From Escherichia coli (GTDB lineage: Bacteria; Pseudomonadota; Gammaproteobacteria; Enterobacterales; Enterobacteriaceae), in NCBI RefSeq assembly GCF_003018255.1, contig NZ_CP027440.1: a stretch of 64,000 bases of DNA, one strand, 5' to 3'. The notes under the pieces were generated by a model that was given only the letters and a program-made list of their open reading frames with translations, searched no databases and was not told the DNA's origin. Below, piece by piece: positions 35,885 to 38,485 of this stretch (its first letter is position 1; the number at the start of each line of letters is the position of its first letter). The translations under genes and the position numbers were made by a program.

Positions 35885-36943
35885 ATGTTTAATACTGTAA
35901 AAATATCCAGTTGTGAGTTAATCAACGCTGACTGCCTGGAATTTATCCGGTCGTTACCCGAAAATTCTGTTGACCTGATAGTCACGGACCCGCCGTACTT
36001 TAAAGTGAAGCCTGAGGGCTGGGATAACCAGTGGAAGGGCGACGATGACTACCTGAAGTGGCTGGACCTGTGTCTGGCGCAGTTCTGGCGGGTGCTGAAA
36101 CCTGCCGGAAGTCTTTACCTGTTCTGTGGCCATCGCCTGGCATCTGACATTGAAATCATGATGCGTGAACGCTTCAGTGTGCTGAACCATATTATCTGGG
36201 CAAAGCCGTCCGGACGCTGGAACGGGTGCAACAAGGAAAGCCTGCGGGCGTATTTCCCCGCCACAGAGCGCATTCTGTTCGCGGAACATTATCAGGGGCC
36301 GTATCGCCCGAAAGATGCCGGGTATGAGGCGAAGGGCAGGGCACTGAAACAGCATGTGATGGCCCCGCTGATTTCTTACTTTCGTGATGCGCGTGCTGCC
36401 CTGGGGATAACGGCAAAACAGATAGTGGATGCCACAGGAAAGAAAAACATGGTGTCGCACTGGTTCAGTGCCAGTCAGTGGCAGCTACCGAACGAAAGCG
36501 ATTATCTGAAATTACAGGCGCTGTTTGCCCGGGTGGCAGAAGAGAAGCATCAGCGGGGGGAACTGGAGAAGCCCCACCACCAGCTGCTGGAGACGTATAC
36601 TTCACTGAACCGGCAGTATGCGGAACTGCAGAGTGAATATAAGCATCTGCGGCGGTATTTTGGCGTGACGGCGCAGGTGCCGTACACGGATGTGTGGACG
36701 CATAAACCGGTGCAGTACTATCCCGGGAAACATCCGTGCGAAAAACCGGCAGAAATGCTGCAGCAGATAATCAGCGCGAGCAGTCGTCCGGGTGACCTGG
36801 TTGCAGATTTTTTCATGGGGTCGGGTTCGACAGTCAAAGCCGCGATGGCGCTGGGGCGTCGTGCAACTGGCGTTGAGCTGGAGACTGAACGTTTTGAGCA
36901 GACGGTCAGGGAAGTTCAGGATTTAGTCAGTCAGAACGGATGA
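35885..36943 (+). CDS. DNA methyltransferase (N6-adenine/N4-cytosine class, DPPY motif), no linked restriction enzyme
   Basis: 352 aa; motif DLIVTDPPYF; C-terminal AdoMet-binding FMGSGS. Confidence 0.85.
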   Translation: MFNTVKISSCELINADCLEFIRSLPENSVDLIVTDPPYFKVKPEGWDNQWKGDDDYLKWLDLCLAQFWRVLKPAGSLYLFCGHRLASDIEIMMRERFSVLNHIIWAKPSGRWNGCNKESLRAYFPATERILFAEHYQGPYRPKDAGYEAKGRALKQHVMAPLISYFRDARAALGITAKQIVDATGKKNMVSHWFSASQWQLPNESDYLKLQALFARVAEEKHQRGELEKPHHQLLETYTSLNRQYAELQSEYKHLRRYFGVTAQVPYTDVWTHKPVQYYPGKHPCEKPAEMLQQIISASSRPGDLVADFFMGSGSTVKAAMALGRRATGVELETERFEQTVREVQDLVSQNG

Positions 36944-36983
36944 TATTGCAGGATTAGTTACGTACCGTTATTATCCTGCGACC

Positions 36984-37059
36984 GGCCCTTTAGCTCAGTG
37001 GTGAGAGCGAGCGACTCATAATCGCCAGGTCGCTGGTTCAAATCCAGCAAGGGCCACCA
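36984..37059 (+). tRNA. tRNA with CAU anticodon (Ile2/Met type)
   Basis: 76 nt cloverleaf: acceptor GGCCCTT/AAGGGCC, D-stem GCTC/GAGC, anticodon loop CTCATAA, T-loop TTCAAAT, 3' CCA. Confidence 0.8.
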
Positions 37060-37068
37060 TATCACATA

Positions 37069-37145
37069 CCGCCATTAGCTCATCGGGATAGAGCGCCAGC
37101 CTTCGAAGCTGGCTGCGCGGGGTTCGAGTCCTCGATGGCGGTCCA
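37069..37145 (+). tRNA. tRNA-Arg (predicted anticodon UCG)
   Basis: 77 nt cloverleaf: acceptor CCGCCAT/ATGGCGG, anticodon stem CCAGC/GCTGG, loop CTTCGAA, T-loop TTCGAGT, 3' CCA. Confidence 0.65.
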
Positions 37146-37423
37146 TTATCTGCATTATGCGTTGTTGGTTCTGATGAGTGAATCATTGTCTTTTGAGCAA
37201 CAGGCTATCATATAAGATAGCCTCAGACTTCCTTGTTTATTCTCGCCGGATGCTTCGTAGATATTTGCAGGCATCTGTATGCAGGGGTATTATTGCGGCA
37301 TATATCATCCGGAAAAATAAAAACTACATGCTGATCCGGAGATGATAGTTACAAGTCCTCCCGGATCCCGCATATTTACTATATTTTATAGATAATTGTT
37401 CTTGTTAATATGGAGATGGATAA

Positions 37424-37852
37424 ATGTATTGCCGTGCTGTACCTGTTCTTGTTTTGATATTAGCCAGTCTGACAACTGGCTGCACAAAAGATGTATCGAC
37501 AAATAATCATGATGCTTCTCTGTATCACTCAGATAAATTAATAACGTCGCAAAAATTGAGCTCATCGGAACGTACCCCTGATGCCAGTGAAGAAATCCGG
37601 CAGTATGCCATTCAGGTCAGGAAAGCCATAGAAGAACAGTTAAAGGATGCGAGTAAGTATTCAGGAAAAGAGTGTTCACTGAGAATGTATATGGCCCCGA
37701 ATGGTCTTCTGCTACGGGTTAAAAGAGAAAGCGGTGATCCCGATTTATGTCGTGAAGCGATGAATGCAGTAAAGAATGCTGATATACCATCACCACCGTC
37801 TTCAGGAGTATATAAAGCATTTAGAAATGGCGTGCTGGATTTTAAACTCTGA
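37424..37852 (+). CDS. lipoprotein with TolA C-terminal (domain III)-like domain
   Basis: Signal peptide plus lipobox LTTGC; C-terminal YAIQVRKAIEEQLKDASKYSGKECSLRMYMAPNGLLLRVKRESGDPDLCREAMNAVKNADIPSPPSSGVYKAFRNGVLDFKL parallels recalled TolA C-terminus. Confidence 0.7.
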   Translation: MYCRAVPVLVLILASLTTGCTKDVSTNNHDASLYHSDKLITSQKLSSSERTPDASEEIRQYAIQVRKAIEEQLKDASKYSGKECSLRMYMAPNGLLLRVKRESGDPDLCREAMNAVKNADIPSPPSSGVYKAFRNGVLDFKL

Positions 37853-38321
37853 CAGGGGGAGAAGATTTTCTCCTGTCCTGATGATTTTGGGGCGCTGGAA
37901 AGATATTGTGCTGTGAAGTGTTAAATCCCTCACAATTCAGTAAGTTGACAGTTGCCTGTCAGACTGAGCATTTGTTAAAAAAATTTCGCATGGTGAATCC
38001 CCCTGTGCGGAGGGGCGACTGGTGAACGGTATGATCTCTTTGATGATCGTAAGCGAGAATACGCGGGTTTGGTGTCACCGGGCTGAACTCACCGGGAGGC
38101 ACCCGGCACCATGCTCATGGTGATACAGAAATGCGGCTTCAGCCCCTCTCCGGAGGGGCTTTCTTATGGACAAAAAAAGCCCGCGCTGGGAGACGCGGGC
38201 GGCAAGGAATAAACAATAAAACGTGAAGTAATACTTCAACTGGCGAATAATACCCGACAGTAATCACTCTGCGCAATAGCGTGGCCTTTTTCGAATTGCG
38301 GGCTGTAGTCTCCCTTCTGCC

Positions 38322-38485
38322 GGGTGTCCTGGTTGCAGATTTCTTCATGGGGTAGGGTTCGGCAGTTAAAGCAGCGATGGTGCTGGGGCGTCGTGCAACT
38401 GGCGTTGAGCTGGATACCGGGCGTTTTGAACAGACTGCGCAGGAAATCAGGGATGTATTTAGCGGGAGCGGTTTGCAGAAGTAAT
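38322..38485 (+). pseudogene. duplicated 3' fragment of the DNA methyltransferase gene, with in-frame stop
   Basis: Near-copy of 36780-36945 (CCGGGTGTCCTGGTTGCAGATTTCTTCATGGGGTAGGG...); TAG interrupts the reading frame. Confidence 0.7.

Follow-up and report, generated by a model that had tools for sequence, protein, structure and literature searches.

A late-operon cargo slot in an Escherichia coli lambdoid prophage carries an M.EcoGII-type orphan adenine methyltransferase and, at a recombination seam, the 3' end of a second methylase allele

A full-length DNA methyltransferase of the M.EcoGI/M.EcoGII type and, 1.4 kb downstream of it, a decayed fragment of a different methylase allele form direct repeats 1532 nt apart in the late operon of a lambdoid prophage of Escherichia coli. 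The region is a cargo slot (the 'stx position', occupied by stx in Stx2a phages) in which two modules have been stacked, and the fragment marks their exact seam. We put the probability of this overall explanation, an M.EcoGII-type methylase together with a fragment left as a scar of recombination, at about 85%. Positions refer to the window, the whole 64,000-nucleotide stretch of contig NZ_CP027440.1 that was analysed, and the features on which the argument draws are the following.

33725-34396, + strand: antiterminator Q, where the late operon with the methylase begins (PF06323 Phage_antiter_Q, E = 4e-89)
34404-34432: promoter-like site just 3' of Q, TTGCAA-17-TATATT (consensus match only)
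35537-35734, + strand: 65-aa ORF directly upstream of the methylase (phrog_331, E = 3e-37)
35721-35738: terminator-like hairpin after the 65-aa ORF
35885-36943, + strand: resident methylase allele A, full length, an orphan adenine DNA methyltransferase of the beta class, M.EcoGI/M.EcoGII family (PF01555, PADLOC, M.EcoGII alignment)
36984-37059, + strand: tRNA with CAT anticodon, ileZ-type, tRNA-Ile according to PGAP (ARAGORN, Rfam)
37069-37145, + strand: tRNA-Arg (TCG) (ARAGORN, Rfam)
37424-37852, + strand: TolA C-terminal-domain lipoprotein gene (PF06519, 1e-22)
37930-38319, + strand: STnc100 copy 1 and truncated nanS-p leader, right end of module A (Rfam RF02076, 172 bits)
38320-38484, + strand: methylase pseudogene fragment at the left end of module B, comprising the final 54 codons of allele B (alignment, PGAP)
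38510-39796, + strand: 1287-bp cassette (indel boundaries, blastn against KY203, locus L003)
38548-39273, + strand: AraC-like (YdeO/GadX-like) regulator (PF12833/PF00165; NCBIfam YdeO 1e-34, below cutoff)
39363-39641, + strand: 92-aa ORF (ORF92)
39931-40126, 40190-40399, 40460-40659 and 40721-40910, + strand: four tandem STnc100 copies (Rfam RF02076, 119-141 bits)
41138-43102, + strand: nanS-p-type sialate O-acetylesterase gene (PF08410, PF03629, PF20350; annotation)

The resident gene encodes a 352-aa beta-class N6/N4 DNA methyltransferase. An earlier note on this DNA had described a DPPY-motif methyltransferase, and the enzyme is real by its match to the Pfam family PF01555 N6_N4_Mtase (E = 3e-43, residues 29-340), which at 148.7 bits lies far above the curated cutoff of 26.7. 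DPPY occupies residues 35-38 (nt 35987-35998), the target recognition domain (TRD) is central, and the SAM-binding FxGxG motif, here DFFMGSGS (residues 308-315), is C-terminal. This is the order of the beta class and the one described for M.EcoGII (PMC5778455). Over the whole protein, TRD included, 326 of 349 residues are identical to M.EcoGII (about 93-94%), a figure in which a few differences may be reading errors, as the M.EcoGII sequence came from the machine-read PDF text of Table S1 of PMC11551740. For comparison, M.EcoGI and M.EcoGII share 333 of 349 residues (PMC5778455). The resident enzyme and M.EcoGII differ at about 6 of 78 TRD residues, at about 20 scattered positions in all, and at the C-terminus, which reads …DLVSQNG in the former and …DLIV in the latter; both M.EcoGI and M.EcoGII, from E. 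coli O104:H4 prophages (PMC5778455), differ from it in length by 3 aa. Identity reaches 99% with the enzyme of phage 1720a-02, which Murray et al. (PMC5778455) name as very similar to M.EcoGII. The gene is carried by about 35% of complete E. coli genomes, often in several copies.

Judged by its sequence, the 352-aa gene is an M.EcoGI/M.EcoGII-type orphan beta-class adenine methyltransferase, an enzyme of an already characterised kind. M.EcoGI and M.EcoGII, a family described as orphan, have been reported to be non-specific, unexpressed in the lysogen and toxic if expressed (PMC5778455; review PMC12707154). By analogy, the resident enzyme would also be non-specific for adenine, and 'M.EcoGII-type non-specific adenine methyltransferase' is a better label for it than 'site-specific'. 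Because the family is non-specific and the gene belongs to the late operon, methylome sequencing of the lysogen would probably yield no motif for this enzyme. In the prophage of an O104:H4 complete genome (hit H99), considered as a source of the M.EcoGI and M.EcoGII genes, the methylase is replaced by another gene, of the HTH type.

The methylase lies in the Q-dependent late region, between Q and the tRNAs; Q, small ORF, methylase and tRNAs follow one another just as they do upstream of stx2 in Stx2a phages. Its neighbours differ from locus to locus while the methylase stays, and the 65-aa ORF is kept immediately 5' of it in every related locus, being annotated as a 198-bp hypothetical CDS at loci L001-L005, L012, L014 and L017. 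No restriction endonuclease was found by Pfam and PADLOC among the methylase neighbours or the other prophage ORFs scanned, in line with the orphan status claimed earlier. The gene thus has no adjacent cognate endonuclease that would place it in a type II restriction-modification system, and is prophage-borne without such a partner, as M.EcoGI and M.EcoGII are. With the annotated NZ_AP042583.1 the window is collinear only for about 32026-44003 and the outer parts; since the early and lysis regions differ, their ORFs were scanned directly.

It is barely credible that the methylase belongs to a two-part defence system, restriction-modification or other, with a partner hidden among these neighbours, for instance the 237-aa membrane ORF at 34650-35363 or the 65-aa HTH ORF as a controller protein. 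The best PADLOC model for the methylase is indeed MTase_II ('Type II methyltransferase', 7e-163), and two neighbours have no assigned function; however, the 237-aa ORF is missing from most methylase loci (L003, L004, L005, L012, L018), the 65-aa ORF is also present at L017, where another gene replaces the methylase, and the scans found no nuclease domain. Following PMC5778455, a non-specific adenine methylase would moreover have no plausible cognate sequence-specific nuclease.

The position of the gene downstream of Q, together with the published M.EcoGII work, suggests that it stays silent in the lysogen. Induction would lead to its transcription along with the late genes, adenines in replicating phage DNA would be methylated with little or no sequence specificity, and progeny DNA could enter the next host already protected against many restriction systems. 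The anti-restriction role offered in the earlier note agrees with literature proposals for this family, while its other suggestion, a standing epigenetic role in the lysogen, is very unlikely. An enzyme active in the lysogen could regulate host or prophage genes epigenetically, as orphan methylases such as Dam and CcrM do, and the hairpin at 35721-35738 leaves room for a promoter of the methylase's own. Yet no promoter-like site scored in 35738-35885, directly upstream of the gene; M.EcoGI and M.EcoGII gave no methylation signal in their native strain and their expression was deleterious (PMC5778455), and the O111 STEC homologues were considered inactive in the conditions tested (bioRxiv 10.1101/173336). 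Phage Mu Mom and other induction-specific modification genes, which are silent in the lysogen, toxic if artificially expressed and give progeny DNA broad protection from restriction (PMC12707154), probably work alike, although Mom is unrelated to the methylase in sequence and chemistry and makes acetamido-adenine rather than acting as an m6A methylase.

The second methylase sequence in the window is much shorter. In the comparison that the earlier note proposed, pairwise blastn matches 36788-36903 to 38320-38435 without gaps, with 104 of 116 positions identical (90%, E = 2e-40). Beyond these 116 nt the two tails diverge, and the frame of the fragment runs on to a TAA at 38482-38484, which makes its length 165 nt (38320-38484); the earlier bounds of 38322-38485 were off by 1-2 nt. 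The in-frame TAG also reported there is located at 38353-38355, where the Ser codon of FxGxG was. Retaining only the last 54 of 355 codons and interrupted by this TAG, the fragment is a pseudogene; RefSeq/PGAP annotates its counterpart in NZ_AP042583.1 (a 99.9% identical locus) as 'DNA methyltransferase, internal stop; incomplete; missing N-terminus'. It is flanked by the repeat array, as had been observed: STnc100 copy 1 (37959-38171) ends 149 nt before it and four further copies follow the AraC-like cassette at 39931-40910, all five matches scoring 119-172 bits against a gathering threshold of 47 and so belonging to RF02076.

What was first described as a duplicated 3' end is a true second methylase sequence with another source. 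Sequence comparison establishes that the fragment was not copied from the resident gene and represents the 3' end of a separate allele, B. This allele was absent from 50,697 phage records searched by tblastn with the repaired 54-aa fragment peptide (best identity 74.5%), and a word-indexed protein search returned 14 short 'partial' proteins and no full-length entry. The contigs that encode these partial proteins, followed by a search of complete genomes at the DNA level, led to the donor. Over 38320-40246 the window matches positions 6100-8027 of E. coli SMBL (NZ_CP061914.1, L012) at 98.2%. There an intact 355-aa methylase, WP_000483513.1, ends as the fragment does, in …DTGRFEQTAQEIRDVFSGSGLQK, and lies directly upstream of an AraC-like gene that starts 63 nt after the methylase stop and whose product has the same accession, WP_000382066.1, as that of the window. 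The SMBL prophage, in contrast to the window, has no tRNA/TolA module. From 38382 to 38915, a stretch that runs through the fragment stop, there are zero differences from SMBL allele B, and the same identity from 38382 on extends to several draft genomes, whose partial proteins show the B-type tail reaching upstream for at least 87 aa, with the AraC-like gene following.

Seven substitutions separate the fragment from allele B. All fall within its first 62 nt, and the 534 nt that follow have none, a clustering that uniform decay leaves unexplained; the actual donor may have had a different sequence there, or the stretch may be a conversion patch. A local tandem duplication of the resident 3' end that diverged afterwards would account for direct repeats 1532 nt apart with 104/116 identity. 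It is nevertheless most improbable: over its last ~50 nt and in its 3' flank the fragment is unlike the resident tail and matches allele B instead, the DNA to its left is nanS-p leader and neither methylase nor the sequence upstream of the methylase, and strain N51 has the fragment with the full-length methylase missing from the same prophage.

The left side of the seam matches the Stx2a phages. In such phages, among them Stx2_95 and the PV15-279 prophage, 35403-37166 and 37930-38331 have counterparts at 92-97% identity with their order kept, the late 'stx locus' of these phages running Q, small ORF, DNA methylase, ileZ-argN-argO, stx2AB, STnc100, nanS-p and lysis genes. The two tRNAs are arranged as they are upstream of stx2, and blastn homology stops at 37166. 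The next stretch, 37167-37929, has no counterpart in the Stx2a locus L005, where 2311-3755 holds argO and stx2AB; the TolA-domain lipoprotein gene takes the position of argO and stx2AB. Homology resumes over 37930-38331 with STnc100 and the nanS-p leader, the right end of module A aligning with L005 3756-4159 at 92% identity until the match stops 61 nt before nanS-p; a further alignment links this end to the nanS-p leader of the window itself (40911-41080). The leader to the left of the fragment is thus truncated, with the junction at about 38318-38320. Where the Stx2a phages continue directly into nanS-p, the window stacks the methylase remnant, the AraC-like gene, ORF92 and four STnc100 copies, and the intact nanS-p leader follows this array. 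The nanS-p gene is the conserved right anchor of the cargo region, with the lysis genes next.

The junction occurs in 78 of 5426 complete genomes, whereas the parent B arrangement occurs in 1 of 5426. The window, STEC1585, N51 and KY203 have in common the junction, the TAG and four other substitutions, and all sampled copies have the same junction, which points to a single origin. Comparison with sibling prophages, which the earlier note had recommended, shows allele B intact in SMBL, the fragment alone in N51, and in KY203 an otherwise collinear locus that keeps the fragment and is without the AraC-like cassette. The fragment does record past recombination between related prophages, as that note held.

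Retention of the fragment in all 78 junction-bearing genomes could also mean that it is kept for a function, whether as a small ORF, as an RNA, or as promoter or other 5' regulatory DNA that serves the AraC-like gene. This is unlikely. The parental AraC-like start, so close behind the methylase stop, would allow a promoter within the methylase 3' end, and at L019 a 67-aa ORF runs from the leader through the fragment. However, KY203 retains the fragment without the cassette, no sigma-70-like site scored in 38320-38547, Rfam gave no match inside the fragment even at E <= 1, its fold energy was no better than that of shuffled sequences (z = +0.68), and the TAG is common to four of the five strains compared.

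The arrangement is best explained as a recombination scar. One illegitimate crossover probably joined two genomes, A and B. In genome A the break fell within the leader, about 60 nt short of nanS-p and past methylase-A, the tRNAs, the TolA-like gene and STnc100; in genome B it fell at codon 302 of methylase allele B, with the AraC-like gene, ORF92, an STnc100 array and nanS-p beyond it. The product carries the tRNA–TolA-like–STnc100 and methylase–AraC-like–STnc100 array modules in tandem, with the 3' end of methylase-B stranded between them and since altered by the TAG and other substitutions. The direction of the event cannot be proved, and parent B could in principle have arisen from the tandem form by recombination between the direct repeats, which share an identical stretch at 38382-38420.

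The fragment still shares about 116 nt at 90% identity with full-length copies and can exchange sequence with them, and between the two direct repeats an occasional deletion or gene conversion is to be expected. At L019 the interior of the fragment is of the resident type and without the TAG, which argues for continuing exchange with full-length copies. A more speculative and unlikely extension is that the fragment serves as a portable homology patch through which homologous recombination moves AraC-like/STnc100 cargo between co-resident prophages. The same patch could promote loss of the tRNA–TolA module, and the converted fragment of L019 would then be a trace of such traffic. The enzyme is known and the scar ordinary, and their significance beyond annotation is small; the seam does offer a clean marker of single origin with which this prophage lineage can be followed among STEC that are mostly bovine and LEE-negative.

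The methylase fragment at 38320-38484 can now be explained: it marks the join between two cargo modules stacked one after the other. The window contains a lambdoid prophage with the following local gene order:

33725-34396: antiterminator Q, preceded by DUF968 and then RusA
34650-35363, + strand: hydrophobic 237-aa membrane ORF (phrog_1521, unknown function), between Q and a conserved small late-operon ORF
35537-35734, + strand: 65-aa ORF (phrog_331; weak TrmB-like HTH match), followed by the methylase
35885-36943, + strand: methylase ORF, 352 aa (PF01555, N6_N4_Mtase, E = 3e-43)
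36984-37145: tRNA (CAT; ileZ-type) and tRNA-Arg, 3' of the methylase
37424-37852, + strand: TolA C-terminal-domain lipoprotein gene (PF06519, 1e-22)
37959-38171, + strand: one STnc100 sRNA copy (RF02076), between the TolA-like gene and the fragment
38320-38484: methylase fragment, 165 nt (54 codons), its frame open from 38320 to the TAA at 38482-38484 except for one TAG
38548-39273: AraC-like regulator gene, 3' of the fragment (closest NCBIfam models YdeO and GadX, below cutoff)
After the AraC-like gene: 92-aa ORF (ORF92; phrog_2873)
39931-40910, + strand: four tandem STnc100 copies (RF02076), head-to-tail with a period of ~260-270 nt
41138-43102: nanS-p-type esterase gene, then lysis genes

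The fragment is a partial second methylase copy, with similarity far beyond chance: 36788-36903 aligns without gaps to 38320-38435 at 104/116 identities (blastn E = 2e-40). This alignment bears out an earlier note, which had described a partial 3' copy with an in-frame TAG; the stop, at 38353-38355, replaces the Ser codon of FxGxG. The fragment is not new: in E. coli OkiPb01697, whose corresponding locus is 99.9% identical, RefSeq already lists it as a pseudogene of a methyltransferase ('internal stop; incomplete; missing N-terminus'). Tests for a function of its own gave no sign of one: no promoter-like site was scored within 38320-38547, no Rfam model matched within the fragment at a cutoff as loose as E <= 1, and its RNA folding did not surpass that of shuffled sequence (z = +0.68).

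The fragment is not a copy of the resident gene (allele A). Past the 116-nt common stretch the tails diverge, the fragment encoding …ELDTGRFEQTAQEIRDVFSGSGLQK and the resident gene …ELETERFEQTVREVQDLVSQNG. Searching proteins with the repaired fragment returned only E. coli 'partial' proteins, some of which carry the same tail preceded by normal methylase sequence, up to 87 aa; their contigs start inside the methylase, with the same AraC-like gene and then nanS-p following. The intact arrangement (allele B) is found in one complete genome, E. coli SMBL, where 63 nt separate a 355-aa methylase with the fragment-type tail (WP_000483513.1) from the gene for the same AraC-like protein downstream (WP_000382066.1). 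Window positions 38320-40246 match SMBL at 98.2%, with 0 differences over 38382-38915. Fragment and allele B differ at seven positions, all within the first 62 nt of the fragment (38320-38381), with none in the next 534 nt, and five of the seven differences are common to all TAG-bearing copies examined. Uniform decay does not account for this clustering, which could reflect a conversion patch or a donor allele that differed slightly from B. At position 38327, where intact genes have A, different strains carry two different substitutions, T or G.

Left of 38320 the DNA is not methylase but a leader that closely precedes nanS-p in Stx2a phages and also matches the intact leader that the window itself carries at 40911-41137. 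Across the seam the leader reads …TCTCCCTTCTGCC|ATTGTCCTG…, the window …TCTCCCTTCTGCCGGGTGTCCTGG… and the methylase …GCAGTCGTCCGGGTGACCTGG…, placing the join at ~38318-38320 with two to three bases of microhomology. The simplest history would be a single illegitimate crossover between two related phage genomes, fusing a left unit, module A (methylase-A, tRNAs, TolA-like gene, STnc100 and leader), to a right unit, module B, which would have entered the fusion at codon 302 of methylase-B. Its direction is unprovable, as recombination between two direct repeats could regenerate the 'parent B' structure. The recombination between related prophages proposed in the earlier note was thus right in spirit, while 'duplicated' was wrong: tail and flank are those of allele B in SMBL, and strain N51 has the fragment without the resident gene.

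In N51, Q, the tRNAs, the TolA-like gene and the AraC-like gene are likewise present, and a full-length methylase is altogether lacking. In KY203 the fragment is present and the 1287-bp AraC-like/ORF92 cassette (38510-39796) absent from an otherwise collinear prophage; this + strand indel has only AT/GGT-type microhomology at its boundaries. Because the same junction, TAG and four other substitutions recur in the window, STEC1585, N51 and KY203, the fragment sequences indicate a single origin of the junction, a form present in 78 of 5426 complete genomes. A locus in draft assembly GCA_000647455.1 (1386-1589) has the same leader/methylase junction and a B-type tail, with a resident-type fragment interior lacking the TAG, and is best read as an apparent gene conversion by a full-length copy. 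The missing TAG there results in a 67-aa ORF starting in the nanS-p leader.

Stx2a-converting phages match 35403-37166 and 37930-38331 at 92-97% identity and in the same order, which identifies the region as the familiar late-operon cargo slot. Exactly where those phages carry argO and stx2AB, the window has the TolA-like gene.

The resident gene does encode a DPPY methyltransferase, with DPPY at residues 35-38 and the SAM-binding DFFMGSGS at residues 308-315, and, as had been noted, no restriction endonuclease is adjacent: neither one nor another nuclease partner was found among its neighbours or the other prophage ORFs. It is identical to M.EcoGII at 326/349 residues (93%), though a few mismatches may be reading errors in the machine-read text of Supplementary Table S1 of PMC11551740, and shows 99% identity to the phage 1720a-02 methylase, cited by Murray et al. 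as very similar to M.EcoGII (PMC5778455). On motifs, full-length identity, prophage context and orphan status it is filed as a member of the M.EcoGI/GII subfamily, a prophage family already characterised and very common. Among 5426 complete E. coli genomes, 1916 contain it at >= 80% coverage, at up to 7 places per genome, and its variable neighbours are not conserved together with it across related loci. M.EcoGI and M.EcoGII, with 333/349 residues in common, methylate adenine in any context; they are unexpressed in the native lysogen and harmful when expressed constitutively, which makes the suggested epigenetic role in the lysogen unlikely, and their switch-on at induction is the authors' proposal (PMC5778455). 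A 2025 review classes M.EcoGII and Mu Mom together as induction-specific protective modification (PMC12707154). For the resident methylase we infer an anti-restriction mechanism.

Several minor features accompany these genes. In every related locus the 65-aa ORF lies directly 5' of the methylase; it is followed by a terminator-like hairpin (35721-35738) and also occurs in an O104:H4 prophage in which another HTH gene replaces the methylase; the 237-aa ORF (34650-35363) is missing from most related loci. The 142-aa predicted lipoprotein (37424-37852) has the lipobox LTTGC and a TolA C-terminal domain as its only domain; speculatively, it might be a decoy that intercepts TolA-dependent entry of colicins or phages. 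The STnc100 copies in the cargo region number five in total. In a 2026 preprint, multiple copies of the related Pas sRNAs are described as usually distal, not tandem. Apart from 23152-32026 (early region) and 44003-47764 (lysis region), the prophage and its OkiPb01697 counterpart are collinear; in those two blocks the sequence is replaced by unrelated or only patchily similar DNA, typical of lambdoid mosaicism. In the early-right region a sok antisense RNA match (31548-31722, + strand; RF01794, 118 bits) lies beside a hokD-type toxin gene, and the related genome has a RelE/ParE-type toxin–antitoxin pair annotated near this site.
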